64,000 nucleotides of DNA from Candidatus Tenderia electrophaga (GTDB lineage: Bacteria > Pseudomonadota > Gammaproteobacteria > Tenderiales > Tenderiaceae): positions 3,524,235-3,588,234 of the forward strand of contig CP013099.1 of assembly GCA_001447805.1 (NCBI GenBank). Reading direction: 5' to 3'. A program made the position numbers and the translations under genes. Below the pieces are notes generated by a model. It was not told the DNA's origin. It did not search any database and saw only the letters and a list, made by a program, of their open reading frames with translations. Shown here piece after piece: positions 31,763 to 51,070 of this stretch; the first letter of the stretch is position 1, and each line of letters starts with the position of its first letter.

Positions 31763-33070
31763 ATGACTTCCGTTAGCGTGAAACGCTTGACGACCCAGGA
31801 CGAAAACTTCTGGTCCGAACTGGACGGGTTGCTGGCCTGGGAGGGCGTCTCGGACGAGCAGGTGGCCGGGGCGGTGAAGGAGATCCTCACCAACGTACGG
31901 CGCCGCGGCGACGAGGCGGTGGTGGACTACACCAATCGTTTCGACCGCATGTCGGTGCAGTCCATGGACGAGCTGGACATCCCTCAGGCACGTATGCAAG
32001 AGGCCTTGGCGCGCATGCCGGCCGACGAGCGCAAGGCCTTGGAATTTTCCACCCAGCGCCTGTTCGCCTATCACGAATACCAGCGCGCCGAGTCCTGGTC
32101 CTACACCGAGCCCGACGGCACCCTGCTGGGCCAGAAGGTGACACCGCTGGACCGCGTCGGCCTCTACGTGCCCGGCGGCAAGGCCAGTTATCCATCATCG
32201 GTATTGATGAATGCGGTGCCGGCCAAGGTGGCGGGGGTGGAGGAGATCATTATGGTGGTGCCCACCCCGGACGGTGAGATCAACGACATGGTGCTGGCGG
32301 CGGCCGCCCTCGTCGGTGTCGACCGCGCCTTTGCCATCGGCGGCGCCCAGGCGGTGGCGGCATTGGCCTACGGCACCGACACGGTGCCCCAGGTGGACAA
32401 GATTGTCGGCCCGGGCAATATCTACGTCGCCACGGCCAAGGGTATGGTGTTCGGCACGGTCGGTATCGACATGATCGCCGGTCCGTCCGAGATCCTGGTG
32501 GTGTGCGACGGCGCCACCGACCCTGATTGGGTGGCCATGGACCTGTTCTCCCAGGCCGAGCACGATGAAGACGCCCAGTCTATCCTGGTCTCGCCCGACG
32601 CCGCGTTTCTGGACAAAGTGCAGCAAAGCATCGACAGGCTGCTGCCGGAGATGGAGCGCGAGGCCATCATCCGCCAGTCCCTGGAGGCGCGCGGTGCCCT
32701 GGTGCTGGTGGAGAATTTGGAGGAGGCCGCCCGAGTGGTCAACTACGTCGCCCCCGAGCACCTGGAGCTGTCGGTGGAGGATCCGGACGAACTACTGGAA
32801 AACATCCGCCACGCCGGGGCCGTATTCATGGGTCGCTACACCGCCGAGGCGGTGGGCGACTACTGCGCCGGGCCCAACCACGTGCTGCCCACCTCGCGCA
32901 CGGCGCGCTTCTCCTCGCCGCTGGGGGTGTATGACTTTCAGAAGCGCTCCAGCCTGATCATGTGTTCGCCCGCCGGCGCCGCCTCGCTGGGCCGGTATGC
33001 CTCCACCTTGGCGCGTGGCGAGGGTCTGACGGCCCATGCCCGCTCGGCGGAGTACCGCATGAAAAAATAG
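31763..33070 (+). CDS. hisD: Histidinol dehydrogenase
   Basis: 435 aa; AAGGGAG RBS. Confidence 0.9.
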
Positions 33071-33123
33071 CGTCGGGGCTTAATCTTTGAGTAAAATGCT
33101 TGTATAAATTAGAGAACACCAAT

Positions 33124-34224
33124 ATGGCATCGGTAATCGTGGATAAAAAAGACGAAAAGATCATTCATTTGATCCGGCCCGATGTGCAGAAGGCGCAGAT
33201 CAATCGCGTGCCCCCCACCCGCGGGCTGATCAAGTTGGATGCCATGGAGAGCCCCTATCCCTGGCCCGCCTATCTGCGCGGCGAGTGGCTGGAGGAAATG
33301 CAGGGAGTGACCTTAAACCGTTATCCCGATCCCCAGTCCACCGAACTCAAGGCGGCGCTGCGCCAGGTATTCGACATTCCGGCCAATATGGATCTGATGC
33401 TGGGCAATGGCTCCGATGAACTGATCCAGATCATCAACCTGGCCCTGGCCGGGGCGGGACGCAAGGTGATGGCGGCGCTGCCCACCTTTTCCATGTTCCA
33501 GATGATTGCCACCTATGTGGGCATGGACTTCGTCGGCGTGCCCTTGCGCGAGGATGATTTCTCCCTCGATATGCCCGCCATGCTGGCGGCGGTGGAAAAA
33601 CATCGCCCCGCGGTGATCTATCTGGCCTACCCCAATAATCCTACCGGTAATTTGTTCGCCGAGGACGAAATCGTGCGTCTGGCCCAGGCCAGTCACGGCC
33701 TGGTGGTGGTGGATGAATCCTATTTGGCCTATGCCGGCGTCAGCGTCATGGAACGACTGCAGCACCACGATAATCTGCTGATCATGCGCTCGCTGTCCAA
33801 GATGGGTCTGGCCGGACTGCGCCTGGGGTATCTGGTGGGACATAATAAGTGGATCAGTCAGCTTGAGCGGCTGCGTCTGCCCTTCAATATCAACGTACTG
33901 ACCCAGTTTACCGCCGAGTTTGCGCTGAATTATTATGATGTGTTCCTGGAGCAGGTGGAACAGATCCGCCGCGACCGTATCTGGGTGGCGGAAAACATGC
34001 GTCGCCTGCAGGGTGTGAGGGTATTTCCCTCCGAGACCAATTTCATTCTGTTCCGGGTGGCGCAGGGCCGCGGTGACGCCATCGATGCCAGCCTGAGAGA
34101 AAAGGGCGTTCTGTTGAAAAACCTCAATAACAGCGATCCGCTGCTGCACGACTGCCTGCGCGTCACCATCGGTAAGCCCAGCGAAAATGTGGCCTTTCTG
34201 TCGGCGCTGACCTCGTCACTGTGA
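33124..34224 (+). CDS. hisC: Histidinol-phosphate aminotransferase
   Basis: Class-II aminotransferase (pyridoxal-phosphate lysine in SLSKMGLAGLRLGY). I use ATG 33124 rather than the track's TTG 33100. Confidence 0.85.
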   Translation: MASVIVDKKDEKIIHLIRPDVQKAQINRVPPTRGLIKLDAMESPYPWPAYLRGEWLEEMQGVTLNRYPDPQSTELKAALRQVFDIPANMDLMLGNGSDELIQIINLALAGAGRKVMAALPTFSMFQMIATYVGMDFVGVPLREDDFSLDMPAMLAAVEKHRPAVIYLAYPNNPTGNLFAEDEIVRLAQASHGLVVVDESYLAYAGVSVMERLQHHDNLLIMRSLSKMGLAGLRLGYLVGHNKWISQLERLRLPFNINVLTQFTAEFALNYYDVFLEQVEQIRRDRIWVAENMRRLQGVRVFPSETNFILFRVAQGRGDAIDASLREKGVLLKNLNNSDPLLHDCLRVTIGKPSENVAFLSALTSSL

Positions 34225-34341
34225 GCGGTCTCGCTTCAAACGGGGCGCGTTTGCGGGTATCCTGGCGGTTTCTATCTGGCTGACTTTAATTAAGTTCGTT
34301 CATGACGGGCGCTGATCGTCCGTATTTGGAGATGTTTGCAA

Positions 34342-34935
34342 ATGGCTGAACGCAAGGCCGCGGTGGCGCGCGATACGCTGGAGACCCAAATTCAGGTCAC
34401 GGTCAATCTGGACGGTGAAGGCAAAGGCGAGTTTGACACGGGGGTGTCCTTTCTCGAGCACATGCTCGATCAGGTGGCGCGTCACGGCATGATCGATCTG
34501 GCGGTCAAGGCCCGGGGCGATTTGCACATCGACGCCCACCACACTGTGGAAGACATCGGCATTGCCATCGGTCAGGCCTGCGCCCAGGCGGTGGGCGACA
34601 AGAAGGGCATTCGCCGCTACGGCCATGCTTACGTACCCTTGGACGAGGCCCTGTCCCGGGTGGTGCTGGATTTTTCCGGCCGTCCCGGGCTGGAGTTTAA
34701 CGTGGATTTTCCGCGCGCCGCCATCGGCGCCTTCGAGACCGATCTGTTTTTCGAATTTTTTCAGGGTTTCGTCAATCACGCCCAGGTGACCCTGCATGTG
34801 GATGCGCTGCGCGGGCGCAATTCGCATCACATCGCCGAGACCGTGTTCAAGGCCTTCGGTCGCGCGCTACGCATGGCGCTGGAGCCCGATGCCCGCATGC
34901 AGGGCGTTATCCCTTCAACCAAGGGGGCGCTGTAA
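34342..34935 (+). CDS. hisB: Imidazoleglycerol-phosphate dehydratase
   Basis: Monofunctional IGPD. ATG at 34342. Confidence 0.85.
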
Positions 34936-34971
34936 GCCAGTCCGGAGCAGCCCGTTTGAACTGACAGCCTC

Positions 34972-35622
34972 ATGACTTCTATTGCAGTAATCGATTACGG
35001 AATGGGTAACCTGCGCTCCGTCGCCAAGGCGCTGGAGCATGTCGCCCCTTCCGCCTCTATCGCCGTGACAGCGAATGCTGAGATCATTGCGGCGGCCGAG
35101 CGCGTGATCTTTCCCGGTGTCGGCGCCCTGCGCGACTGCATGACCGAATTACGTCGTCTGGCGCTGGATCAGGTGATCCGCGAACTGGCCGCCTCGGGTA
35201 AGCCGCTGCTGGGCATTTGCCTGGGCATGCAGGCGCTGCTCGACTGGAGCGAGGAAAACGGCGGCAGCGCGGGGTTGGGGATTCTTCCCGGCAAGGTGCT
35301 GCACTTCGCCGCCGGCCAGACCGATCCGCGCACCGGCGAACCGCTCAAGGTGCCGCACATGGGGTGGAACCAGGTCCATCACAGCGGTGGACATCCTTTG
35401 TGGCGCGACATCCCCCAGGACAGCCGTTTCTATTTCGTGCACAGCTATTATGCCCGGCCTGACAATTCGGCCGACTGCGTCGGGACCACCCATTACGGCC
35501 TGGATTTTGCGTCGGTGCTGGCGCGTAAAAACGTGTTTGCCGCGCAATTTCATCCGGAAAAGAGTCAGCAGGCGGGGCTCACGCTGCTGCGTAACTTTGC
35601 TGAATGGAATGGGACACTATAA
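34972..35622 (+). CDS. hisH: Imidazole glycerol phosphate synthase glutaminase subunit
   Basis: Class-I GATase (GICLGMQ). Confidence 0.9.
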   Translation: MTSIAVIDYGMGNLRSVAKALEHVAPSASIAVTANAEIIAAAERVIFPGVGALRDCMTELRRLALDQVIRELAASGKPLLGICLGMQALLDWSEENGGSAGLGILPGKVLHFAAGQTDPRTGEPLKVPHMGWNQVHHSGGHPLWRDIPQDSRFYFVHSYYARPDNSADCVGTTHYGLDFASVLARKNVFAAQFHPEKSQQAGLTLLRNFAEWNGTL

Positions 35623-35647
35623 TGAATGATACGTTGGGAGCGTCATC

Positions 35648-36378
35648 ATGTTGTTAATACCCGCAATTGATTTAAAACAGGGCAAGTGTGTGCGACTGCG
35701 GCAAGGACGCATGGAGGACGACACGGTATTCTCCGATGATCCGGTGGCCGTGGCCGGACGCTGGGTCGAGGCCGGCGCCAAGCGCCTGCACCTGGTGGAC
35801 CTGGACGGTGCCTTCGCCGGCAAGCCGGTCAACGCCGCCGTGATCCGCGATATCGCCGCTGCCTTTCCCGACCTGCCCATCCAGGTGGGCGGCGGTATTC
35901 GCGACGAAGAGACCATCGACACCTATCTGGCCGCCGGGGTGCAATACGTCATCATCGGCACCAAGGCGGTGAGTGCGCCGCACTTCGTCGGCGATGTCTG
36001 CGCCGAATTCCCCGGTCATATCATCGTCGGGCTGGATGCCAAGGACGGCAAGGTGGCCATCGACGGTTGGTCCAAGCTGTCCCATCATGACATTATCGAC
36101 CTGGCCCAGCATTTCGAGCGCGACGGCGTGGAGGCCATTGTCTATACCGACATCAGCCGCGACGGCATGATGCAGGGCGTGAATGTCGACGCCACCCGTA
36201 AGCTGGCGCGCGCCATTACCATCCCGGTTATCGCCTCGGGCGGCGTCACCGATATGGACGACATCCGCGCCCTGCAGGCGGCCGCGGAGGACGGTATCAT
36301 GGGCGCCATCCTCGGTCGCGCCATCTATGAGGGCCGTATCGACCTGGCCGCAGCGAACGCGTGGGTGAGTGGCGACTG

Positions 36379-36379
<1 letters not shown>
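35648..36379 (+). CDS. hisA: ProFAR isomerase
   Basis: [17 protein letters not shown]. Confidence 0.9.
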
Positions 36380-37142
<763 letters not shown>

Positions 37143-37146
<4 letters not shown>

Positions 37147-37529
37147 GCTGGTTGGACGAGATCGAGTGGAGCGCCGACGGCCTGGTGCCGGTGATCGCCC
37201 AGGAGACCGGCAGCGGGCGGGTACTGATGTTTGCCTGGATGAACCGCGCGGCCCTGGCCGAGACCGCCGCCGACGGCTACGCGGTGTACTGGTCGCGTTC
37301 GCGCCAGCAGTTGTGGCGTAAGGGCGAGCGCTCCGGCCACCGGCAGCGGGTGATCAGCATAAACCTTGATTGCGATGAGGATGTGATCCTGCTGGAAATT
37401 GAACAGCAGGGCGGCATTGCCTGTCATACTGGGCGCAAGAGCTGTTTTTACCGCCGTCTCGAGGACGGTGAGTGGAAGACGGTGGAGCCGGTACTCAAGG
37501 ATCCGGCCGAGATCTACGCGGGCAAGTGA
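37143..37529 (+). CDS. hisI: Phosphoribosyl-AMP cyclohydrolase
   Basis: 128 aa. The GTG start overlaps the hisF stop. Confidence 0.85.
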
Positions 37530-37536
37530 GGCATTA

Positions 37537-37899
37537 ATGGAATCCAGCCAGGTACTGCAGGAACTGGCCCAGCTGCTGGAGTCGCGCAAGGGGGCGGACG
37601 CAGATTCCTCCTATGTGGCCGGCTTGTACGCCAAGGGCCTGGACGCCATTCTGAAGAAGGTCGGCGAAGAGGCCACCGAGACGGTGATGGCGGCCAAGGA
37701 CGGTGACCCGGACAAGTTGGTCTACGAGGTCGCCGATTTGTGGTTTCACACTCTGGTGCTGCTGGCGCAGCAGGGGTTGGCACCGGAGGCCGTGCTTACA
37801 GAGCTGGCGCGCCGCTTCGGTATTTCCGGTATTGAAGAAAAGGCGGCGCGGGGTCAGAATAAACAGCTTTCGGCGCGGCGCGATTTTGGAGAAGAGTGA
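37537..37899 (+). CDS. hisE: Phosphoribosyl-ATP pyrophosphatase
   Basis: ATG at 37537 (M47 of the track ORF). MazG-like HisE. Confidence 0.8.
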
Positions 37900-38156
37900 T
37901 GGGATTTGGTGGCATTAGTATCTGGCAGTTGTTGATTGTTCTGGTGATTGTATTGTTGCTGTTCGGCAGCAAGAAACTGCGCGGGCTGGGCTCGGATCTG
38001 GGCAGTGCGGTGAAGGGCTTTCGCGGCGCCATGGGCGAGGCCGAAAAAGACGAAGACAAGCCCAAGGATGAACCGGCCAAGTTGGACCAGGCCGACAGCA
38101 GCGAGGCGCGGGTGATCGAAGGCGAGGCCGGCGAGCGGGACAAGAAAAAGGTTTAG
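37899..38156 (+). CDS. tatA: Twin-arginine translocase subunit TatA
   Basis: [22 protein letters not shown] helix with an amphipathic helix. The ATG overlaps the hisE stop (TGATG). Confidence 0.8.
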
Positions 38157-38173
38157 CCCGGGCCTGATTTGCC

Positions 38174-38542
38174 ATGTTCGACATCGGCTTCCTGGAAATC
38201 GTGCTGATCACCGTGGTGGCCTTGCTGGTGGTCGGTCCCAGCGAGTTTCCCGGCCTGGTGCGTAACATTGGCCGCGGCCTGGGTAAGGCGCGGGCCTTTC
38301 TCAGCTCGGTCAAATCCGATCTTGATTACGAAATCGACAAGGCCAACGAGATCAAGCAGCTGATGGAAAAAGAGGCCGAGATCGCCCGGCTCCACGAAAT
38401 AATCGAAAACAATGCCGCGACCGTGCCCGTTCAGGGTAAGCCGGCTGAAGAACCCAGCAGGGTCGAGAAGTCAGATGAGCTCAGCCAAGCCGAGACCGAC
38501 CAAGAGTCGCCGCAGCCGGTCAGTGATCGGCGACCGACTTAA
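38174..38542 (+). CDS. tatB: Twin-arginine translocase subunit TatB
   Basis: MFDIGFLEIVLITVVALLVVGP. Confidence 0.75.
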   Translation: MFDIGFLEIVLITVVALLVVGPSEFPGLVRNIGRGLGKARAFLSSVKSDLDYEIDKANEIKQLMEKEAEIARLHEIIENNAATVPVQGKPAEEPSRVEKSDELSQAETDQESPQPVSDRRPT

Positions 38543-39314
38543 TACCCGCTCGACGCGCGACCGCAATCAGGAGCAGCAGGGACTGATCGGCCACCTGATC
38601 GAACTGCGCTCGCGCCTATTGCGTATCTTCTTGTCCATCGGTCTTATTTTTCTGCCGCTGGCCTTCTTCGCCAACGATCTCTACGCCCTGCTGGCCATGC
38701 CGCTGTTGGCGCATATGCCGCAAGGCACCAGCATGATCGCCACCGAAGTGGCCTCGCCCTTTCTGACGCCGTTCAAGTTTGCCCTGGTGCTGGCCATTTT
38801 TCTCGGCATGCCGGTGATCCTGTATCACTTCTGGGCCTTTATTGCGCCGGGGCTGTACGTCCACGAACGTAAGATGATGCTGCCCCTGTTGGCGGGCAGC
38901 ACCGCGCTGTTTTACGGCGGGGTGATATTTGCCTACTACGTCGTGTTTCCGCTGATCTTCGGGTTTTTTCTCAGCGTCGTGCCGCAGGGCGTGGCGGTGA
39001 TGACCGACATTAGTAAGTATCTCGATTTTGTTCTCAAGATCTTTTTTGCCTTCGGTTTGGCCTTTGAGGTACCCATTGTCACCATCGTCTTGGTCTGGGC
39101 CGGCGCCACCACGCCCGAACAGCTGGTCGCCAAGCGTCCTTATGTGATTGTGGGGGCCTTTGTGCTGGGGATGTTGTTTACCCCGCCGGACATGATTTCG
39201 CAAACCCTGTTGGCGATTCCCATGTGGTTGTTGTTCGAGATCGGCGTGGTGTTGTCACGCATGGTGGCCAAGCGCCAGGCCGAGCGGGACACGGCCGAAG
39301 AGGAACAGTCTTAA
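38475..39314 (+). CDS. tatC: Twin-arginine translocase subunit TatC (start uncertain)
   Basis: LIGHLIELRSRL…FFANDLYALLAMPL matches the TatC N-terminus. The only in-frame ATG is at 38475, which gives a 35-aa basic N-extension and overlaps the tatB 3' end by 68 nt. Alternatively translation starts at a non-canonical codon such as CTG ~38583. Confidence 0.7.
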   Translation: MSSAKPRPTKSRRSRSVIGDRLNTRSTRDRNQEQQGLIGHLIELRSRLLRIFLSIGLIFLPLAFFANDLYALLAMPLLAHMPQGTSMIATEVASPFLTPFKFALVLAIFLGMPVILYHFWAFIAPGLYVHERKMMLPLLAGSTALFYGGVIFAYYVVFPLIFGFFLSVVPQGVAVMTDISKYLDFVLKIFFAFGLAFEVPIVTIVLVWAGATTPEQLVAKRPYVIVGAFVLGMLFTPPDMISQTLLAIPMWLLFEIGVVLSRMVAKRQAERDTAEEEQS

Positions 39315-39324
39315 GCCGGATTTC

Positions 39325-40491
39325 TCAGCGGGCTTGCTCCAACAGTGGTTGCGGCCGCTCGCCGATGACCACCTCCAATGTTTGCGTTTGACCCTGACGC
39401 AGGATTTCCACCTCCAATACCGTGCCTGGTGCAAGGCTGGCGATGACATTCATTAGTGAGCGACTGCCGCTGACTGGCTCATTGTTGACGCGCACGATGA
39501 CGTCGCCCGGTTGCAGCCCGGCCTCAGCGGCCGGTCCGTCGGGCTGGATGCCAGCGATCAACGCGCCCTGGATGTCGCCCAGACCGAAGGATTCGGCCAG
39601 GCTGTCGCTCAGGTCCTGTACCTCCACGCCCAGCCAGCCACGCAGCGGCCGGCCGTGTTCGATGATCTGTTTCATCACGCCCTTAGCCAGGCTTACCGGA
39701 ATGGCGAAGCCGATCCCCTGCGAACCGCCGGAGCGGGAAAAAATGGCGGTGTTAATACCGATCAGCTGCCCCGCGGTATTGATCAAGGCGCCGCCGGAGT
39801 TGCCGGGATTGATGGCGGCGTCGGTCTGGATGAAGTTTTCGAAGGTGCTGAGTCCCAGTTGCGAGCGGCCGGTGGCGCTGACGATGCCGCTCGTGACGGT
39901 CTGACCCACGCCGAAGGGGTTGCCGATGGCAAGCACTACGTCGCCGACGCGCAGGGCCTCGGACTGGCCGAACGTAATGGCCGGGACGTTGCTGATGTTG
40001 ACCTTGAGCACGGCCAAATCGCTTTCTGGGTCGGTACCGACGATGGCGGCGGCGGCGGTGCGGCCGTCGTGTAGCGCCACTTCGATTTCGTCGGCACCCT
40101 GGATGACATGATTATTGGTGAGGATGAAGCCTTGGTCGTTGACGATGACGCCGGAGCCCAGGCTGTTTTCCAGGCGCTGTTGCGGCGCGGGCGCGCGGTC
40201 GCCGAAAAAACGTCGAAACAGGGGGTCCTCGAACAAGGGGTTGGCGCGTTGTGTTACCACCTTGCGCGTGTAGACATTGACCACGGCGGGCGCGGCGATA
40301 TCGACCGCATGGGCATATGAGGCCAGGCCGCTTTCGATTGCCTGGCGCGTGGGAGAGGGGGCTTCAATAAATTCTACGCTTGGTCTACTCTCGAATGCCT
40401 CGGGCTTGAACAGCAACAACAACACGAAGGCGAACGCCAAACCGGCGGTGATTGCTTCGGTCGCGAAGGAGAGCAGTTTTCGTAGTTGCAT
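39325..40491 (-). CDS. DegS/AlgW-type periplasmic serine endoprotease (HtrA family, single PDZ)
   Basis: ATG at 40491 (M119 of the track ORF). N-terminal TM anchor, catalytic triad motifs (TNNHV…D…GNSGGAL) and one PDZ domain. Its position next to the his genes mirrors Pseudomonas algW. Confidence 0.8.
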   Translation of the reverse strand: MQLRKLLSFATEAITAGLAFAFVLLLLFKPEAFESRPSVEFIEAPSPTRQAIESGLASYAHAVDIAAPAVVNVYTRKVVTQRANPLFEDPLFRRFFGDRAPAPQQRLENSLGSGVIVNDQGFILTNNHVIQGADEIEVALHDGRTAAAAIVGTDPESDLAVLKVNISNVPAITFGQSEALRVGDVVLAIGNPFGVGQTVTSGIVSATGRSQLGLSTFENFIQTDAAINPGNSGGALINTAGQLIGINTAIFSRSGGSQGIGFAIPVSLAKGVMKQIIEHGRPLRGWLGVEVQDLSDSLAESFGLGDIQGALIAGIQPDGPAAEAGLQPGDVIVRVNNEPVSGSRSLMNVIASLAPGTVLEVEILRQGQTQTLEVVIGERPQPLLEQAR

Positions 40492-40551
40492 CGTTGGGCG
40501 TATCTTGAGTAAGTTGGCAGCCAATGTTAACGCAAAGCGTAGGATAAGTGC

Positions 40552-41301
40552 ATGGTTCAATTGGAAGAGCTGGTAAATTTTTGTGACGAACTGCTGGCCG
40601 CGAATAGCTTTGGCGACTATGCCCCCAATGGACTGCAGGTGGAAGGGGCGGTGCAGGTCAACAAGATTGTTTCCGGCGTAACCGCCAGCCAGGCCTTGAT
40701 CGAGGCGGCGGCGGCCAACGATGCCGATGTCCTGTTGGTGCATCACGGCTTTTTTTGGAAGGGCGAATCGGCGTGTATCACCGGCATCAAAAAACGCCGC
40801 ATTGCACGCTTGTTGGCGGCCGACATAAGTTTGCTGGCCTATCATTTACCCTTGGATGCCCATCCCGATATCGGTAACAATGCGCAGCTCGCGCGCCGCT
40901 TGGGGCTTCAGGTGGAAGGGCGTTTCGGGCGTGACGCGCTTGGCATGGTCGGGCGTCTGCCGCAGCTGATGACGAGCGCCGAACTGATTCAGCATATCAG
41001 CGTTAGGCTGGGACGGCAGGCGATCCATCTGGGTGAAGGTGACGCGCAAATCGAACGGGTCGCTTGGTGCACAGGGGCGGCGCAAGGATATATCGAGGCG
41101 ACACCGGGCTTGGGGGTGCAGGCCTATATCAGCGGTGAAATGTCCGAGCAGACGACCCACTTTGCCAGGGAGACCGGCATCCATTATGTGTCGGCCGGCC
41201 ATCATGCCACGGAACGTTACGGTGTGCAGGCCTTGGGTGAGTTACTGGCGCGGCAATTCGGCCTGACACATCAGTTTATCGACATCGACAACCCGGTTTG
41301 A
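40552..41301 (+). CDS. Nif3-like dinuclear-metal-centre protein (YbgI / GTP cyclohydrolase 1 type 2 family)
   Basis: 249 aa; Nif3 motifs (VLLVHHG, GHHATE). Confidence 0.8.
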   Translation: MVQLEELVNFCDELLAANSFGDYAPNGLQVEGAVQVNKIVSGVTASQALIEAAAANDADVLLVHHGFFWKGESACITGIKKRRIARLLAADISLLAYHLPLDAHPDIGNNAQLARRLGLQVEGRFGRDALGMVGRLPQLMTSAELIQHISVRLGRQAIHLGEGDAQIERVAWCTGAAQGYIEATPGLGVQAYISGEMSEQTTHFARETGIHYVSAGHHATERYGVQALGELLARQFGLTHQFIDIDNPV

Positions 41302-41841: not shown

Positions 41842-42468
41842 ATGTTTGTGAGTGAAAAATTTCTCTCTATAGGGGGCGGAAATAAGGCCGGCCATGCGAG
41901 TGTCAACAAGGGGCTTGCCGTGTTTTTCGCGATGCTGGCGGCTGCCTTCTTTGTGAATGTCGCGCAGGCGGAAGTGCCGAATGCCGTGCCGCCTAAGGGG
42001 ACGCATGACGGCGAGCATGTGCCGCAACCCATCGAGTTTCCGCACGACATTCATGCCGACATCAACGACATCAACTGCATGTATTGTCACACCTATGCAC
42101 GTCGCAGCAAGGTGGCCGGAATCCCGCCCACCAGCAAATGCATGGGGTGCCATTCGGTCATCGCAACCGACAAGGATCGTATCAAGAAGCTTACGGAATA
42201 TTGGGAAAACAATGATCCGCCGAAGTGGAAAAAGGTCCATGACGTGCCGGATTATGTGCATTTCACTCACGAGAAACATCTGCAGCGATTTGTGTTTAAC
42301 AACGAAGGTATGAAGGTGGAGAACGTCTCCGAAGTCTGTGCCTTCTGTCATGGCGACGTTAAGAAAATGACTGTGGCGCGCAAGGTTAAGCCGCTGAACA
42401 TGGGCTTCTGCGTGCGTTGTCATGAAGCGAACGACGGTCCTTTCGATTGCTGGAAGTGCCACAAGTAA
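41842..42468 (+). CDS. actA: Alternative Complex III subunit ActA (pentaheme cytochrome c)
   Basis: Five CxxCH motifs (CMYCH, CMGCH, CAFCH, CVRCH, CWKCH), an N-terminal membrane anchor and a GAGGA RBS. Confidence 0.75.
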   Translation: MFVSEKFLSIGGGNKAGHASVNKGLAVFFAMLAAAFFVNVAQAEVPNAVPPKGTHDGEHVPQPIEFPHDIHADINDINCMYCHTYARRSKVAGIPPTSKCMGCHSVIATDKDRIKKLTEYWENNDPPKWKKVHDVPDYVHFTHEKHLQRFVFNNEGMKVENVSEVCAFCHGDVKKMTVARKVKPLNMGFCVRCHEANDGPFDCWKCHK

Positions 42469-42537
42469 CCTCGGGTGGGCTGGGGCCTGGCGTCCGGCCG
42501 TCAATTTTTAACTAATATATTTAACGGATGATTTGTT

Positions 42538-44757
42538 ATGAGTGGTAACGATATCAACCGCAGAGACTTCCTGAAATTCATGGGGATCGGTGGCGTCGGT
42601 GCCGCGACCTTGAGTGGTTGCGACATGCCCACCACCATCACCCTTGAGGAGGGTAAGGAAGACGTGGTTTCCTACCTGGCGCCGGAAGAATATGCGATAC
42701 CGGGTATTGGCATCTATTTTGCATCCACCTGTCAGCAATGTCCTTCGGGCTGTGGTGTGCACGGCCGGGTTCGCGAAGGTCGTTTGTTGAAGCTGGAAGG
42801 CAATCCCGCAGCCATGAACGGCAGGGGACTGTGCCAGATGGGGCAGGCCAGCGTGCAAAGTCATTACAATCCCGACCGTATAACGCAGCCCATGGCGCGT
42901 AAAAATGGTGCCTTGACGCCCATCAGTTGGGACGAAGCCTGGCAATTGATGGGCGATAAGGTCTCCGGTGTGGATGCGGGGCGTAGCGCTTGGTTTACCG
43001 GGACTGTCAGCGGCCACCAGGCCAAGCTCCTGGAGGCGCTGAACGAGGCCTGGGGTAGCAAAGACCATTACGTGTACGAAGCCGTCAATAACGCGGTGGG
43101 CAAGGCGGTCAACGAGGCGGTCCTGGGTGATCCCATGCCGGCGTATCGTATCGACAAGGCCAAGTCCATATTGTCGTTCGGGGCCGATTTTCTCGGCACC
43201 TGGATGTCGCCGGTACACTTCTCGCGCGAGTACGTCAAGTTCCGCGGCGGTGACCGAGGTGTGCTGATCCAGGTCGAGCCGAAGATGACCCTGACCGGTG
43301 GTAACGCCGACCTGTGGGTGGCGGCCCGGCCCGGTACCGAAGGCGTGTTGGCTCTCGGTATCGCCAACGTGCTGCTGACCAAGAACCAGGTGAAGGGCGA
43401 CAAATTGCCGCAGGCGGCCTTGGATGAAATCGCCAAGTACGATGTCAACAAGGTGACAGAAATCACCGGCGTGGGTGGCGATACCATGGTACGCATCGCC
43501 AATTACCTGACCAATCATAGCCCCAGTTTAGTGTTGTCGGGTGAGTCGGCCCATAACCATGTCAATGGTTATGAGAACGCCATGGCAGCCATGATGCTGA
43601 ATGTGTTGTTGGGTAATGTGGGTAAAACCATCGAGCCTTCCAATAGCATCGCCTTCGAGGATCTCAAGGCTAAGCACGGCAACAGCCGTGCCCTGGCGGA
43701 TTTCGCCAAGGCGGTGGACGGCGGCAAGTACGATGTGGTGTTTTTCCACGGTGCCAACCCCGTTTACACCGCGCCGGCGCATCTGGCGATGGCGGAGAAG
43801 TTGGCCAAGGTGCCGTTTAAGGTGGCCTTGTCTATGTTCCCCGATGAAACCACTGTGGCCGCCGACCTGGTGTTGCCGCTTTCTTCGCCATATGAAGAAT
43901 GGGCCACTACGGTGGCGCCCTATCAGCCCAAAGAGGCGGCCATCAGCATATCGCAGCCACTGATGAAACAGCTCTATCCCGAAACTATGGGCCTGGGCGA
44001 CCTGCTGCTGACCATGCTTAAGCACCATCAAGTCGAAGACTATGCCGATTACGGTGACTATTATGCTTATCTGCGCGCTGCTTTGGAGCAGATGCCGGCA
44101 TCGGTCAAGGGCGGTAAATCCGGGGGGCAGTTCTGGTCGGCGGCGTTGCAGCAGGGCCTGATCAAGGCGCCGGCCAAGGCTGGTTCGCTCAAGGTGAGCC
44201 TGGGGAGTATCAAGCAATCGATACCCCAGGCGGGTAATGATTATCCGCTGCACCTGGTGCCATCCACCAATCAGAACATGTATGACGGTCGCAACGCCAA
44301 CCTGCCCTGGTTGCAGGAGGCGCCGGATCAAATCAGCAAAGTGTTCTGGGATTCCTGGGCAGAGCTTCATCCCAAAACCGCTGCCAGACTCGGTGTGAAA
44401 GAGGGTGACTATGTCCGGGTGGAGTCGGACCAGGGCGCAATCGAGACACAGGTCTATATCCACAAAGGCGTGCATGTGGACGCTGTGTGCGTGCCTATCG
44501 GGCGCGGCCATGAGGCATACGGTCGCTATGCCGAGGGGCTCGGTGTCAATCCGCTCAAGATCCTCAGCCCAGCGGTTGAGCAGAAGAGCGGAGAGCTGGC
44601 CACCCATGCTACCCGGGTGCGGGTCAGCAAGACCGGCCGCCATGCCGAGTTACCACGCTTAGGGGGCAGCGAAACCCAGGTGGGACGCCGCTTGGTTAGT
44701 AGCATCCCAGCTGATGCTTTCAGAAGGACTGAGGGAGGCGATAACAATGTCGCTTAA
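42538..44757 (+). CDS. actB1: ACIII subunit ActB1 (molybdopterin-oxidoreductase-like domain, Tat signal)
   Basis: Twin-arginine signal ([21 protein letters not shown]) and a 739-aa MoCo-oxidoreductase-like fold. Followed by an overlapping FeS-subunit start. Confidence 0.75.
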
Positions 44758-44898
44758 GAATATACTCGAAAACTGGTCTCAATATCGTAAGGGCCACGAG
44801 CAGGGTGGCCATCATGAATACGAACACATGTGGGCCATGGCCATTGACCTGAACCGATGTACTGGCTGTAATGCCTGTTCCGTGGCCTGTTACGCCGA
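43031..44898. repeat. Tandem direct repeat, copy 1 (1,868 bp)
   Basis: Identical to 44899-46766. Base-by-base comparison of the first ~110 nt matched, and all six-frame ORFs recur with identical translations at a constant +1868 offset. Confidence 0.85.
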
Positions 44899-44926
44899 TG
44901 GAGGCGCTGAACGAGGCCTGGGGTAG
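44747..44926 (+). pseudogene. actB2 5' fragment (60 codons) created by the tandem duplication
   Basis: [10 protein letters not shown]…[10 protein letters not shown] is identical to the start of the full actB2 at 46615. It then reads across the junction into 9 out-of-frame codons and a stop. Confidence 0.6.
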
Positions 44927-46625
44927 CAAAGACCATTACGTGTACGAAGCCGTCAATAACGCGGTGGGCAAGGCGGTCAACGAGGCGGTCCTGGGTGATC
45001 CCATGCCGGCGTATCGTATCGACAAGGCCAAGTCCATATTGTCGTTCGGGGCCGATTTTCTCGGCACCTGGATGTCGCCGGTACACTTCTCGCGCGAGTA
45101 CGTCAAGTTCCGCGGCGGTGACCGAGGTGTGCTGATCCAGGTCGAGCCGAAGATGACCCTGACCGGTGGTAACGCCGACCTGTGGGTGGCGGCCCGGCCC
45201 GGTACCGAAGGCGTGTTGGCTCTCGGTATCGCCAACGTGCTGCTGACCAAGAACCAGGTGAAGGGCGACAAATTGCCGCAGGCGGCCTTGGATGAAATCG
45301 CCAAGTACGATGTCAACAAGGTGACAGAAATCACCGGCGTGGGTGGCGATACCATGGTACGCATCGCCAATTACCTGACCAATCATAGCCCCAGTTTAGT
45401 GTTGTCGGGTGAGTCGGCCCATAACCATGTCAATGGTTATGAGAACGCCATGGCAGCCATGATGCTGAATGTGTTGTTGGGTAATGTGGGTAAAACCATC
45501 GAGCCTTCCAATAGCATCGCCTTCGAGGATCTCAAGGCTAAGCACGGCAACAGCCGTGCCCTGGCGGATTTCGCCAAGGCGGTGGACGGCGGCAAGTACG
45601 ATGTGGTGTTTTTCCACGGTGCCAACCCCGTTTACACCGCGCCGGCGCATCTGGCGATGGCGGAGAAGTTGGCCAAGGTGCCGTTTAAGGTGGCCTTGTC
45701 TATGTTCCCCGATGAAACCACTGTGGCCGCCGACCTGGTGTTGCCGCTTTCTTCGCCATATGAAGAATGGGCCACTACGGTGGCGCCCTATCAGCCCAAA
45801 GAGGCGGCCATCAGCATATCGCAGCCACTGATGAAACAGCTCTATCCCGAAACTATGGGCCTGGGCGACCTGCTGCTGACCATGCTTAAGCACCATCAAG
45901 TCGAAGACTATGCCGATTACGGTGACTATTATGCTTATCTGCGCGCTGCTTTGGAGCAGATGCCGGCATCGGTCAAGGGCGGTAAATCCGGGGGGCAGTT
46001 CTGGTCGGCGGCGTTGCAGCAGGGCCTGATCAAGGCGCCGGCCAAGGCTGGTTCGCTCAAGGTGAGCCTGGGGAGTATCAAGCAATCGATACCCCAGGCG
46101 GGTAATGATTATCCGCTGCACCTGGTGCCATCCACCAATCAGAACATGTATGACGGTCGCAACGCCAACCTGCCCTGGTTGCAGGAGGCGCCGGATCAAA
46201 TCAGCAAAGTGTTCTGGGATTCCTGGGCAGAGCTTCATCCCAAAACCGCTGCCAGACTCGGTGTGAAAGAGGGTGACTATGTCCGGGTGGAGTCGGACCA
46301 GGGCGCAATCGAGACACAGGTCTATATCCACAAAGGCGTGCATGTGGACGCTGTGTGCGTGCCTATCGGGCGCGGCCATGAGGCATACGGTCGCTATGCC
46401 GAGGGGCTCGGTGTCAATCCGCTCAAGATCCTCAGCCCAGCGGTTGAGCAGAAGAGCGGAGAGCTGGCCACCCATGCTACCCGGGTGCGGGTCAGCAAGA
46501 CCGGCCGCCATGCCGAGTTACCACGCTTAGGGGGCAGCGAAACCCAGGTGGGACGCCGCTTGGTTAGTAGCATCCCAGCTGATGCTTTCAGAAGGACTGA
46601 GGGAGGCGATAACAATGTCGCTTAA
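44899..46625 (+). pseudogene. N-terminally truncated second copy of actB1 (lacks first ~164 codons including the Tat signal)
   Basis: In-frame identical copy of ActB1 residues ~165-739. The six-frame ORF 44871-46625 gains a fortuitous ATG 28 nt upstream of the junction. Confidence 0.6.
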
Positions 46626-46766
46626 GAATATACTCGAAAACTGGTCTCAATATCGTAAGGGCCACGAGCAGGGTGGCCATCATGAATACGAACACATGTG
46701 GGCCATGGCCATTGACCTGAACCGATGTACTGGCTGTAATGCCTGTTCCGTGGCCTGTTACGCCGA
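44899..46766. repeat. Tandem direct repeat, copy 2 (1,868 bp)
   Basis: Begins tggaggcgctgaacgagg… exactly as at 43031. The junction reads …tgttacgccga|tggaggcgct…. Confidence 0.85.
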
Positions 46767-47460
46767 GAACAACTTGGCAGTGGTGGGCAAGGAACGCATG
46801 AAAAAAGGCCAGGGCATGCACTGGCTCCGGGTTGAGCGCTACTGGGATGAACCCCAGCTCGGCGGCGATGACAAGGAATATCAAGAGCGGGGCGGCAGCT
46901 TTCTGCCGCTGATGTGTCAACAGTGTAACGCGGCTACCTGTGAGCCGGTGTGTCCGGTTGCGGCGACCTATCACACCCCCGACGGTCTGAATGCCCAGGT
47001 CTATAACCGCTGCATCGGCTCGCGTTATTGCTCCAATAACTGCCCTTATCGCCTGCGCTATTTCAATTTCTATTCCTATTACGAGGATTCGTGGCCCGAA
47101 CCGCTGCACATGCAGTTGAATCCCGATCTTAGCGTGCGCGACAAGGGCGTTATGGAGAAGTGCACCTTCTGCGTTCAGCGCATTCGCACCGCCAAGGATA
47201 CTGCGCGCCGCGAAGGACGCGAGGTGCAGGACGGCGATGTGATTACCGCCTGCGCCCAGACCTGTCCTACCGAGGCGATCGTCTTCGGCGACATACTGGA
47301 TGAGAACTCCCAGGTGCGTAAGATTTGGCGGGCACAGCAGGTTCAACTCGGCGTCACGGAGCAAGATAAGACAAATCCCGAGTTGCGCGGCTACCGTATA
47401 TTGGAAGCCTTGAATACCGATCCTTGTGTAACGTATCTCGACAGGGTGCGCGAGGCCTGA
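46615..47460 (+). CDS. actB2: ACIII subunit ActB2 (4Fe-4S ferredoxin-type iron-sulfur subunit)
   Basis: Four Cys clusters ([42 protein letters not shown]…CAQTCP). GGAGG RBS. Confidence 0.75.
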   Translation: MSLKNILENWSQYRKGHEQGGHHEYEHMWAMAIDLNRCTGCNACSVACYAENNLAVVGKERMKKGQGMHWLRVERYWDEPQLGGDDKEYQERGGSFLPLMCQQCNAATCEPVCPVAATYHTPDGLNAQVYNRCIGSRYCSNNCPYRLRYFNFYSYYEDSWPEPLHMQLNPDLSVRDKGVMEKCTFCVQRIRTAKDTARREGREVQDGDVITACAQTCPTEAIVFGDILDENSQVRKIWRAQQVQLGVTEQDKTNPELRGYRILEALNTDPCVTYLDRVREA

Positions 47461-47514: not shown

Positions 47515-48924
47515 ATGCAAACTAAAGATATAAATGAAAATATAGAGTGGGCGAAAATCAACGAGGATGTGCTCCGCAGTATGGAGAATCCTCGGATTGG
47601 CTACTGGATCGCCGTTGCCTGTTGTGTCGCGATGGTGATGTGTGCCGTGGTTGCCGAAATTTATCAGTACCAAACCGGTATGGGGGTCGGCAACCTCAAC
47701 TGGCCGCACATGTGGGATCTTTACATCGCCACCTTCGTATTCTGGATCGGGATGAGCCACTCCGGGACGCTGTTGTCGGCGATTCTGCATATTATCCAGG
47801 CCGACTGGCGCAAACCGATTTATCGTTTCGCCGAGGCGATGACCACCTTCTCGCTGATGACCGCGGGCCTGTTCCCGATGATCCACTTGGGCCGCGTCTG
47901 GAACATGTATTGGGTGCTTCCCTACGTTTCCGATCGTGGCATCTGGCCCAATTTTCGTTCACCGTTGATCTGGGATGCGTTCGCGATCACTACCTATTTG
48001 ACTTCGTCAGCACTGTTCCTGTTTATCGGTATGATTCCCGATCTGGCGATTTGCCGGGACAATGCCCGCGGCTGGCGCCAAAAGCTGTATACCGTATTGT
48101 CGCTGGGATGGCAGGGGGACGACCGCCAGTGGCGCAATTTCCGCAAAATCTACCTGTTGATGGCCTGCTTCCTGATTCCGCTGGCGGTCTCGGTGCACTC
48201 CATCGTTTCGGCTGACTTTGCCATGTCGATCATGCCAGGCTGGCACATCACTTCGTTCCCGCCCTACTTCGTTGCGGGTGCTCTTTATTCCGGCTGTGCC
48301 GCGATCATCTCACTGTTCATCATTCTGCGCTATTTCTTCCGCTTTGAAGATTACATGACGATTCCGATCCTGGAAAAGACCTGTAAGCTGACCTTCGCCA
48401 TTGCCATGGTGTGGAGCTACTTGACGCTGGTTGAGTTCGCCTCTGTCTGGTACGGCCATGACGCTGTGGCCAAGGAGGCCTTGATGGGCCGTTTTACTGG
48501 GGCGTATGCGCCCCTGTTCTGGCTCATGCTGTTCTGCGGGATCGTTGTCCCCTTTACCTTGGCCTTCGAAAAATTGAGGCGACATTTGCCTACCATGTTC
48601 GTGGTGTCACTCGTGCTCAACTTAGGTATGTGGCTGGAGCGCTATATGATTGTTACACCCACCTTGCAGCTGTCGTACTATCCTTTTGCCTGGGATGTAA
48701 TGTGGCCCAGCATGGTGCAGTGGGCCATCGTCTTCGGCAGTTTCGGCTGGTTCGGGCTGCTGTTCCTGATCTTCGTCAAGGTGTTTCCGTCGGTCTCCAT
48801 GTACGAAGTCAAGGAGATGGTGTTTCATCGCCGCCAGCACCACAGTCCGGCGCTGGCTGAGCAACTCCACCGCCGCGCCGGCGACCCGAAACCGGGTGAG
48901 CAACCGAGTACAGAAGGAGCTTGA
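47515..48924 (+). CDS. actC: ACIII subunit ActC (NrfD/PsrC-like polytopic membrane quinol-interacting subunit)
   Basis: 469-aa multi-TM NrfD-family protein. Confidence 0.75.
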   Translation: MQTKDINENIEWAKINEDVLRSMENPRIGYWIAVACCVAMVMCAVVAEIYQYQTGMGVGNLNWPHMWDLYIATFVFWIGMSHSGTLLSAILHIIQADWRKPIYRFAEAMTTFSLMTAGLFPMIHLGRVWNMYWVLPYVSDRGIWPNFRSPLIWDAFAITTYLTSSALFLFIGMIPDLAICRDNARGWRQKLYTVLSLGWQGDDRQWRNFRKIYLLMACFLIPLAVSVHSIVSADFAMSIMPGWHITSFPPYFVAGALYSGCAAIISLFIILRYFFRFEDYMTIPILEKTCKLTFAIAMVWSYLTLVEFASVWYGHDAVAKEALMGRFTGAYAPLFWLMLFCGIVVPFTLAFEKLRRHLPTMFVVSLVLNLGMWLERYMIVTPTLQLSYYPFAWDVMWPSMVQWAIVFGSFGWFGLLFLIFVKVFPSVSMYEVKEMVFHRRQHHSPALAEQLHRRAGDPKPGEQPSTEGA

Positions 48925-48926
48925 CC

Positions 48927-49454
48927 ATGAAGCGTTACTATGTAATGGGGCTGTTTAGTAACTTCGAAGAGGCGTTCGCAACGATTTCCGAGATTCGCGA
49001 ACACGCCGTTCCGGGTGTGTCCGTGGATGACGTCACACTCAAGTCACCAATCGAGCATCCGGAGATCGAGGAGGTGTTGGGTGACCGGGGTTCTCCCGTG
49101 CCCAAGTTCACCCTCTTCGGTGCGATCTTCGGAATTTGCTTCGGCTTTCTGTTCCTGGCGTCGGCCCAGGCAACGTTTCTGGTGCAACCGCAGGGCGGAA
49201 AACCGGTGGTGCCGTTGCCGACCAACATCGTCTTGACTTACGAAATGTTGATCCTGTTTGGCGTGATTTCCACGGTGATCGGATTTCTGATCAATGCCCG
49301 TTTGATGACCAAACGCCATCCTTTGTACTCGGAAAAGGTCAGCCTAGACCAGGTCGGAGTCATGTTGGAGTTGGATGAGAAGAATGTTGATCCCATCAAA
49401 GATTTATTCAAAAGGCACAAAGTATTGGAAATTCGTGAAGAGGTTTCGCAATGA
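48927..49454 (+). CDS. actD: ACIII subunit ActD (DUF3341)
   Basis: ATG at 48927 with AAGGAG RBS. Two TM helices, 175 aa. Confidence 0.65.
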   Translation: MKRYYVMGLFSNFEEAFATISEIREHAVPGVSVDDVTLKSPIEHPEIEEVLGDRGSPVPKFTLFGAIFGICFGFLFLASAQATFLVQPQGGKPVVPLPTNIVLTYEMLILFGVISTVIGFLINARLMTKRHPLYSEKVSLDQVGVMLELDEKNVDPIKDLFKRHKVLEIREEVSQ

Positions 49455-49996
49455 GACTTAAGAGTGTAATTGCAGCGGCAGCGCTGATGATGCCGGCGGC
49501 GGCCATGGCCTGGCCCTGGTCTACCGATATGATGAATCAGCCGAACATCAAGCCGCAGGAAGGTGAGATGATCCCGTTCCCCGAGCGCTCTATTCCTGTT
49601 GGCGGTATCCCGACGCAAGTGGCGGATCGCGAAGCGGCCAAGCCGATGAAAAATCCCATCGAGGCGACCCCTAAATCGATTGCCCAAGGGCGCACGCTGT
49701 TTAAGATTTACTGTGCCGCCTGTCATGGCCTGACCGGGGCGGGAGACTCTCCTGTCAGCGGCAAAATCGGGGCTATCGCACTCAATGATAGCTATGTGCA
49801 GGAGAACCTGACCGAGGGATGGGTATGGGGCACGATCACTTTCGGTAGCTATGTAATGCCGGCCTACGGGGTGCCGCAAGGCAAGCGCGGTTCCAACGAT
49901 TTGAATGTTGAAGAGCGTTGGCATGTGGTGAATTACGTCAAGCACGGTCTGATGAAGGATCATGCGGCGGCGACAAGAACGGCCGCAGCCGAGTAA
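49451..49996 (+). CDS. actE: ACIII subunit ActE (monoheme cytochrome c)
   Basis: Signal peptide and a single CAACH motif. ATGA overlap with actD. Confidence 0.65.
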   Translation: MRLKSVIAAAALMMPAAAMAWPWSTDMMNQPNIKPQEGEMIPFPERSIPVGGIPTQVADREAAKPMKNPIEATPKSIAQGRTLFKIYCAACHGLTGAGDSPVSGKIGAIALNDSYVQENLTEGWVWGTITFGSYVMPAYGVPQGKRGSNDLNVEERWHVVNYVKHGLMKDHAAATRTAAAE

Positions 49997-50038: not shown

Positions 50039-51070
50039 ATGGAAAACTTCGGTTTCTGGTCGGTTGTAATCACCAACTTCTTAATTGTGCTCTACCTGGC
50101 CCTAGGTGGAGTGACCTTGTCGGCCGCATTGCATCTGGCAAACGGTAAATGGCGTTTTCAGATTCGCTCGTTGGCATGTTCGCTGGCCGTGCTGTTCCCG
50201 ATCGCCTTTGTCCTGTTGCTGATCATTCTGACGGCGGGCGAGTCGGCCTTCCCATGGCTGGCGCATGCGCATGACGAAGGTCATCACCTGCCGGGTTGGC
50301 ACAACTATACCTTCCTGGTGGCGCGTAATATCATCGGGTTCCTGCTGGTGGCGGGCATGTACCTGCTCTTCATTAAATGGCAGTACGAAACCACCGTCGA
50401 TAGCTCCTATGCAGTGCAGCGGCGCTTCCGTAACCTTGCGCTGATGATACCGTTTGTGTACTTCACTTATGGCACTATGGTGGCGTGGGACTTTGAAATG
50501 ACCATGCTGCCAAATTGGCATAGTGCGAGTTACGGCGCCTACCATTTCCAAAGTAACTTCCACATGTTTCTGGGCTTTTTTACCATCTTCCTGTTCATAC
50601 TTTACCGCTCAGGCAAACTGGTGAAACCGTTTGAGGGGTATATCTTCAACTTCATGGCTCAGTTTATGCTGGCGATGACCATTTTGTGGACGTATCTCTA
50701 CTTCACACAGTATTTGATCATGTGGTATGGCCGTCTGCCTTTCGAGATGGAGCGTTATTGGGACATGATGAGCAACATGAGCGGCCTGTGGTGGTTGTTC
50801 TTGGCGCTCAAGTTCGTTATTCCGTTCTGCACGCTGGCGATTACACCCAATCGTCATAATCCACCGGTGATCGTGATGGTGGCGGCGAGCATTGTGCTGG
50901 GTACCTGGATCGAGCGCTATACCTGGGTTTCCGGTTCCGTCGACCCGCAGTACTATCACACCCCCATGTCGTCAATCGCCGATATCGTGGTTACGGTGGT
51001 GGTCTTTGCGGTCAGTTGGTTTGCAGTGAAATGGAGTCTGACCCGATACGGACTGATGCGCAGCTCATAA
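50039..51070 (+). CDS. actF: ACIII subunit ActF (second NrfD-like membrane subunit)
   Basis: 343-aa multi-TM protein. Last gene before a strong terminator. Confidence 0.65.
   Translation: MENFGFWSVVITNFLIVLYLALGGVTLSAALHLANGKWRFQIRSLACSLAVLFPIAFVLLLIILTAGESAFPWLAHAHDEGHHLPGWHNYTFLVARNIIGFLLVAGMYLLFIKWQYETTVDSSYAVQRRFRNLALMIPFVYFTYGTMVAWDFEMTMLPNWHSASYGAYHFQSNFHMFLGFFTIFLFILYRSGKLVKPFEGYIFNFMAQFMLAMTILWTYLYFTQYLIMWYGRLPFEMERYWDMMSNMSGLWWLFLALKFVIPFCTLAITPNRHNPPVIVMVAASIVLGTWIERYTWVSGSVDPQYYHTPMSSIADIVVTVVVFAVSWFAVKWSLTRYGLMRSS

Follow-up and report, generated by a model that had tools for sequence, protein, structure and literature searches.

A perfect 1,868-bp tandem duplication within the Alternative Complex III operon of 'Candidatus Tenderia electrophaga'

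The deposited chromosome of 'Candidatus Tenderia electrophaga' (contig CP013099.1, assembly GCA_001447805.1) shows, within the operon for Alternative Complex III (ACIII), the same stretch of DNA twice in succession, which raises the question of whether the cell really carries such a duplication or an assembler made it and, in the first case, how it arose and what it does to the genes concerned. We analysed a 64,000-nucleotide (nt) part of this contig (positions 3,524,235 to 3,588,234 of the forward strand), referred to as the window, and positions below count from its first letter unless stated otherwise; the evidence consists of assembled contigs and k-mer-graph contigs, not of mapped reads. 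On sequence grounds the locus is an ACIII operon, with ActB divided between two genes and the order actA-actB1-actB2-actCDEF. We consider it highly probable that the repeat reflects a real head-to-tail duplication of 1,868 bp that arose in the chromosome very recently, by a homology-independent join, and we regard it as neutral or mildly deleterious.

The duplicated unit and its recovery in independent data

A base-by-base comparison over the full length establishes that 43031-44898 and 44899-46766 (together 3567265-3571000 in the coordinates of CP013099.1) are the same 1,868 nt arranged head-to-tail with 0 mismatches, which bears out the perfect tandem repeat proposed at 43031-46766 in the initial annotation. 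A match of this length and perfection makes a chance origin impossible. Beyond the unit 0 further bases match on either side, so that its boundaries are exact, and the only long repeat, direct or inverted, that a repeat search of the window returns is this pair (spacing 1868). The open reading frame (ORF) pairs previously listed at an offset of +1868 (e.g. 43528-44643/45396-46511, on the minus strand) are present as well; they are alternative-frame or antisense ORFs, the real genes being on the plus strand.

At the join-point, GTTACGCCGA is directly followed by TGGAGGCGCTG (in longer context, CCTGTTACGCCGA followed by TGGAGGCGCTGAAC), with 0 bases in common, and 0 bases are likewise shared between the sequence preceding the unit and the unit end, and between the unit start and the sequence following the unit. 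The absence of microhomology reported earlier thus stands. The junction 25-mer is GTTACGCCGATGGAGGCGCTGAACG, and the junction string can also be given as GTTACGCCGATGGAGGCGCTG. Local similarity around the breakpoints does not exceed that of shuffled sequence, and a search of the breakpoints for homology or inverted repeats returned nothing above chance. The endpoints carry no insertion sequence (IS), repetitive extragenic palindrome (REP), rrn or other repeat or mobile sequence, and the unit holds ACIII coding domains only. A scan for promoters and terminators gave nothing above shuffle expectation and nothing specific to the unit. It should be noted that the left breakpoint forms the centre of a near-palindrome, CTCC/TGGAG (43026-43034, the slash marking the breakpoint), and that the right breakpoint has no comparable feature; no evidence for a role of this near-palindrome was found and no conclusion is drawn from it.

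CP013099.1 is described as a PacBio-sequenced genome (PMC5371394). Concerning other data sets, the ORF that begins at the join-point was found on 10 contigs in 10 blocks of a public collection, the sources being NCBI and ENA only. Throughout both copies the ENA contig ERZ3820733 NODE_104 (108.6 kb, named in SPAdes style, coverage 66) runs colinear with the window, and its sole difference is a 2-nt deletion at 42538, which identifies it as a separate data set and not one derived from the reference. For the k-mer-graph contigs of Logan the prediction was set beforehand: reads containing the junction would force such contigs to break at the unit ends, so that the predicted edge-truncated products of 43033-44757 and 46738-47460 could serve as look-up queries. 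The unit product was found in one contig, SRR1953061_4671, which is exactly 1,868 nt long and equals 43031-44898. The product of 46738-47460 was found in 6 contigs, from SRR1953059, SRR1953061, SRR1956857, SRR1956906 and SRR1956907 plus one unlisted; the five listed ones start at 46737, i.e. k-1 = 30 nt before the right breakpoint, and show 0 mismatches downstream. Branch points at the exact breakpoints in at least five SRA runs imply that junction k-mers are present in the raw reads. The runs SRR1953059-SRR1956907 may be the metatranscriptomes of PMC5371394, going by the proximity of their accessions to BioSamples SAMN03462067-74; a literature search found no paper that names these runs or the JGI samples.

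Single-copy forms of the same locus exist as well. Two JGI assemblies of the same strain (3300035361 and 3300035329) contain one copy, and the flanking 12.4 kb (left) and 11.7 kb (right) match the window with 100% identity; the single-copy type accounts for 15 of the 23 contigs in one same-strain set that was read and for all three in another. Contigs from metaSPAdes are expected to include a loop of this kind if its junction is abundant, so these JGI contigs probably stem from populations where the junction is scarce or missing. In a sister strain with ~97% identity (Logan: ERR3484138, ERR3484139 and ERR3484141) the unit is single and the contigs pass straight through both breakpoints. These three runs belong to an unrelated set of public runs, and their strain has 95-98% nucleotide identity, 7 amino-acid changes in ActB1 and the same gene order. 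A search of genome contigs with ActB1 missed the source genome itself and returned three relatives at 50-55% identity, two of which show the split, single-copy order actA-B1-B2-C-D-E-F. A scan of metagenome contigs with a degenerate 28-mer (junction plus wild-type right boundary) gave 0 matches and also missed the known JGI contig, the organism being evidently absent or masked there.

The comparison with sister strains that the initial annotation had suggested hence finds the single-copy form in the ~97% strain and in the relatives at 50-55%, and its presence in the same strain, the sister strain and the relatives identifies it as the ancestral state. The other suggested comparison, which looked for differences between the copies as the mark of an older and fixed duplication, yields zero divergence, and the event is therefore very recent. 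Apparently the duplication is segregating in the biocathode enrichment, or is being lost again, and is not fixed.

In mechanistic terms, one site in actB1 and one in actB2 would have been connected by an illegitimate join. The blunt, homology-free junction points to illegitimate recombination rather than to unequal crossing-over between repeats. Roth, Andersson and colleagues reportedly characterised join-point tandem duplications in Salmonella and E. coli that form independently of RecA and have short or no junction homology. The Tenderia case shares with them the head-to-tail arrangement of identical copies with one novel join-point, the endpoints in two genes that both survive, the chimeric join-point ORF, and the polymorphic or unstable state with the precise single-copy form in the same strain. 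It differs in that the unit measures 1.9 kb and holds no whole gene, where tens to hundreds of kb are usual in Salmonella and E. coli, and in that it comes from an uncultivated organism in a mixed enrichment and has zero microhomology, whereas those cases come from selection experiments. RecA-dependent recombination between repeats of 1.87 kb can remove a tandem duplication precisely, so that the coexistence of duplicated and single-copy assemblies is expected. The description as an unstable 'amplification intermediate' in the initial annotation stands in part: the same-strain single-copy assemblies fit instability, but the sense of a gain in dosage finds no support, the unit containing no complete gene. 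The event is of an ordinary kind, a small spontaneous tandem duplication with a join-point ORF, in a notable place, and involves no new biological mechanism.

Effects on actB1 and actB2

The unit starts at the second base of actB1 codon 165 and ends after actB2 codon 51 (codon 62 if counted from the upstream ATG), and so comprises the last 575 codons of actB1 and the first 51 of actB2. The resulting array reads intact actB1, actB2' stub, actB1' ORF and intact actB2. As the endpoints fall in neighbouring genes, actB1 remains complete at the left copy and actB2 at the right copy; ACIII is still encodable, from one intact copy of each. Since 1868 leaves a remainder of 2 on division by 3, the reading frame shifts at the junction, and the join-point, i.e. 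a frameshifted actB2' stub followed by the 5'-truncated actB1' ORF (Tel_16350), would be the sole new product (see Table 1 for all coordinates).

The stub retains only the first Fe-S cysteine motif (Fer4_2 only), and is called as a 59-residue gene in the ENA contig. The actB1' ORF has neither the twin-arginine translocation (Tat) signal nor the N-terminal Fe4S4-like domain of ActB1, offers an alternative in-frame ATG at 44871, and shows no Shine-Dalgarno-like sequence upstream. The intact actB2 has its native upstream context with a GGGAGG Shine-Dalgarno sequence, and its start overlaps the stop of actB1' by 11 nt. Because of the missing parts and the missing ribosome-binding site, Tel_16350 is most likely a transcribed, probably untranslated or unstable, non-functional remnant; were it translated by reinitiation, the product would remain cytoplasmic for want of a Tat signal. 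The only peptide unique to Tel_16350 would span Met-Glu-Ala-Leu at the junction. The published gene table has Tel_16345 at 3566772-3568991 and Tel_16350 at 3569132-3570859, the latter among the ACIII genes as a hypothetical protein (Table S1 of PMC5371394).

Published metatranscriptome values, normalised for length and expressed as log2 counts per million per kilobase (CPM/kb), are 10.77 for actA, 10.68 for actB1 and 10.47 for actB1', and further downstream 9.01 for actB2, 8.94 for actC, 9.16 for actD, 8.94 for actE and 8.66 for actF (PMC5371394). The flat level from actA through actB1 to actB1' is as expected of two transcribed copies between which multi-mapping reads are divided; with a single-copy template, values over the unit would be lower by about 1 log2 unit, and the flat levels are weakly suggestive of a transcribed two-copy state. 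From actA/actB1/actB1' to actB2-actF the level falls ~3-fold (~1.5 log2 units), a step that may be native to the operon or may reflect polarity across a poorly translated actB1'.

Upstream of the left breakpoint, at a distance of 493 nt, a second polymorphism affects the start codon of actB1. The sequence is GTTATGAGT in the window and in JGI 3300035361, and GTT--GAGT in ENA ERZ3820733 and JGI 3300035329, a 2-nt deletion that replaces the ATG of actB1 with an in-frame TTG start; the ~97% sister strain has ATG. All four combinations of ATG or deletion with the duplicated or single-copy form occur among the assemblies. They were considered as proof of recurrent loss and rejected as such, mixed-population consensus contigs being possibly chimeric.

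These two changes together could be read as an electrode-selected variant, in which the duplication and the ATG-to-TTG change retune ACIII subunit levels, or in which the junction yields a functional cytoplasmic ActB1 fragment. We regard this as unlikely. In its favour, the two are the only polymorphisms seen in 22 kb of otherwise identical sequence and both lie in actB1, the duplication occurs in many samples, published mRNA falls ~3-fold from actB1' to actB2-F, and ACIII has been proposed to be central to reverse electron transport (PMC5371394). Two changes within 3 kb of 22 kb are, however, statistically unremarkable (~0.14), the 3-fold step could be native, and single-copy forms either persist or arise again. 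The duplication includes no complete gene and so brings no gain in dosage, and the junction ORF has neither an export signal nor a ribosome-binding site. A regulatory route, by which polarity over 1.7 kb of untranslated actB1' would lower the expression of actB2CDEF or the stoichiometry of ACIII would be altered, seems improbable too. If true, the adaptive reading would mean the real-time adaptation of a proposed reverse-electron-transport module in an electroautotroph. An amplification selected for dosage would need at least one complete gene in its unit, and here the unit holds none; with a dosage benefit thereby unlikely, we favour a neutral or mildly deleterious duplication over a selected amplification.

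Assembly artefact, free circle and weight of the evidence

Could the true chromosome be single-copy, and the second copy be e.g. an untrimmed circular end overlap rotated inward or a mis-resolved repeat? In favour of this, the copies are perfectly identical, the record was assembled from long reads of a metagenome, the single-copy form is found in many public assemblies of the same strain, and artefacts of long-read assembly (untrimmed overlap, collapsed or expanded repeat) likewise appear as perfect direct repeats with zero divergence in closed genomes of the PacBio era. Such artefacts are, however, confined to one assembly, whereas the Tenderia junction is recovered independently from short-read data: the identical junction is found in ENA short-read SPAdes contigs, one of them with a 2-nt indel against the reference, and in at least five separate SRA runs the Logan contigs are cut precisely at the breakpoints. 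The window moreover contains no other long repeat of this kind. An artefact is therefore very improbable, and misassembly, untrimmed circularisation overlap included, is excluded for practical purposes. Between the two options that the initial annotation had left side by side, a recent unstable event or a misassembly, the ENA contig and the Logan breaks decide for the former. A synthetic duplication was also considered and rejected, since the gene table published in 2017 already has Tel_16350 at matching coordinates.

A single-copy chromosome accompanied by a free circular DNA of 1,868 bp, which assemblers would have threaded into the chromosome, would account for the single-copy contigs, but is equally hard to credit, as the unit consists of internal actB1/actB2 coding sequence with no recombinase, origin, terminal repeats or end homology, the deposited long-read genome has the two copies in tandem, and the published transcript values across the unit agree with two copies transcribed as part of the operon.

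Several points weigh against a neutral tandem duplication in the chromosome. A de Bruijn graph is the same for a tandem array and for a circle, and the sole source for the tandem form is the long-read assembly, taken as assembled sequence. One of the nine duplication-bearing contigs from outside NCBI was inspected as sequence, and the other eight were counted only. The array may hold two copies of the unit or more. The single-copy contigs from JGI might in principle be collapsed repeats. Ribosomes that terminate on the actB2' stub (stop at 44926) could restart translation from the ATG at 44898. Finally, the change of the actB1 start codon in the same population hints at selection on the operon, which argues against simple neutrality.

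As for previous descriptions, the duplication is not mentioned in the Tenderia papers that were searched, PMC5371394 and its supplement among them, nor was it found by a full-text search of locus tags and protein accessions, the 2016 species description lying outside this search; it is apparently undescribed so far. Its practical consequences, for annotation and read mapping, outweigh the conceptual ones. Tel_16350 should be regarded as a remnant of the duplication and not as an extra ACIII subunit, which is relevant to orthology, proteomics and model-building. Because the copies are identical, short reads from the 1.87-kb unit, and almost all of its peptides, cannot be traced to one of them, and the expression values of Tel_16345, Tel_16350 and the first part of Tel_16355 depend on the treatment of multi-mapping reads. 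The reference genome captures one allele, and the population also includes single-copy forms and a start-codon variant. These alleles provide a marker for sub-lineages of an uncultivated organism across reactors, and a small natural experiment on the importance of ACIII expression for cathodic growth. As to method, predicted edge-truncated gene products, looked up in unitig-level public assemblies, test for junction reads without access to the reads.

The operon and its surroundings

The cluster has been named ACIII by homology in published papers, and the complex is proposed to be central to reverse electron transport in 'Ca. Tenderia electrophaga' (PMC5371394). Its placement in the initial annotation is confirmed by the matches of ActC and ActB to solved chains and by the ActD Pfam family. 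ActB1 contains the domains Molybdop_Fe4S4 (PF04879), Molybdopterin (PF00384) and Molydop_binding (PF01568) and matches the N-terminal molybdopterin-like part of the ActB chains 8K9E_B, 6LOD_B and 6F0K_B with E ~1e-40. ActC matches the solved ActC chains 6F0K_C, 8K9E_C, 6LOD_C and 6BTM_C with E values from 1e-98 to 1e-107, and shows weak similarity to ActF chains. The subunit set and its order are the same in the solved complexes of Rhodothermus marinus, Flavobacterium johnsoniae, Roseiflexus and Chloroflexus (6F0K, 6BTM, 6LOD, 8K9E). ActB is a single chain of 933-1,039 residues in these structures, whereas in Tenderia it is encoded by two genes, B1 with 739 and B2 with 281 amino acids; the Tenderia reference additionally has the actB2' and actB1' fragments, which single-copy strains and relatives lack.

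Table 1. Coordinates of the repeat, its products, the start-codon polymorphism and the ACIII genes in the window
Feature	Position	Strand	Description
actA (Tel_16340)	41842..42468	+	cytochrome with five CxxCH motifs; Table S1 of PMC5371394
2-nt deletion polymorphism at actB1 start	42538..42539	+	'AT' of ATG absent in some assemblies
actB1, intact (Tel_16345, ALP54594.1)	42538..44757	+	739 amino acids; twin-arginine RRDFLKF
Copy 1 of unit	43031..44898	+	actB1 codon 165 to stop plus first 51 actB2 codons (start called at 44747)
actB2' stub	44747..44926	+	51 native codons, 8 frameshifted codons, stop; 59 amino acids (70 from ATG 44714)
Novel join-point 44898/44899	44889..44908	+	TTACGCCGA joined to TGGAGGCGCT; A/TG across the join makes an ATG codon
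actB1' junction ORF (Tel_16350, ALP54595.1)	44898..46625	+	575 amino acids, i.e. ActB1 residues 166-739 behind the junction-made ATG
Copy 2 of unit	44899..46766	+	identical to copy 1
actB2, intact (Tel_16355)	46615..47460	+	281 amino acids; 4Fe-4S subunit, Fer4 domains
actC	47515..48924	+	NrfD-type membrane subunit, PF03916
actD	48927..49454	+	PF11821 ActD, E 2e-29
actE	49451..49996	+	monoheme cytochrome c, cytochrome c domain
actF	50039..51070	+	second membrane subunit; no Pfam match

actA and actB1 are separated by 69 nt, and this gap contains, at 42478-42509, a G+C-rich hairpin that resembles a terminator (GGCTGGGGCCTGGCGTCCGGCC) and is followed by GTCAATTTTT. Notwithstanding this hairpin, the published transcript level of actB1 equals that of actA, and the terminator scan overall remained within shuffle expectation. 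Immediately upstream of the ACIII operon (~32500-41300) there is a histidine-biosynthesis cluster, followed by tatA-tatB-tatC, a DegP-like protease on the opposite strand and a gene of the NIF3 family. The Tat export genes thus lie less than 5 kb from an operon whose ActB1 bears a twin-arginine signal.

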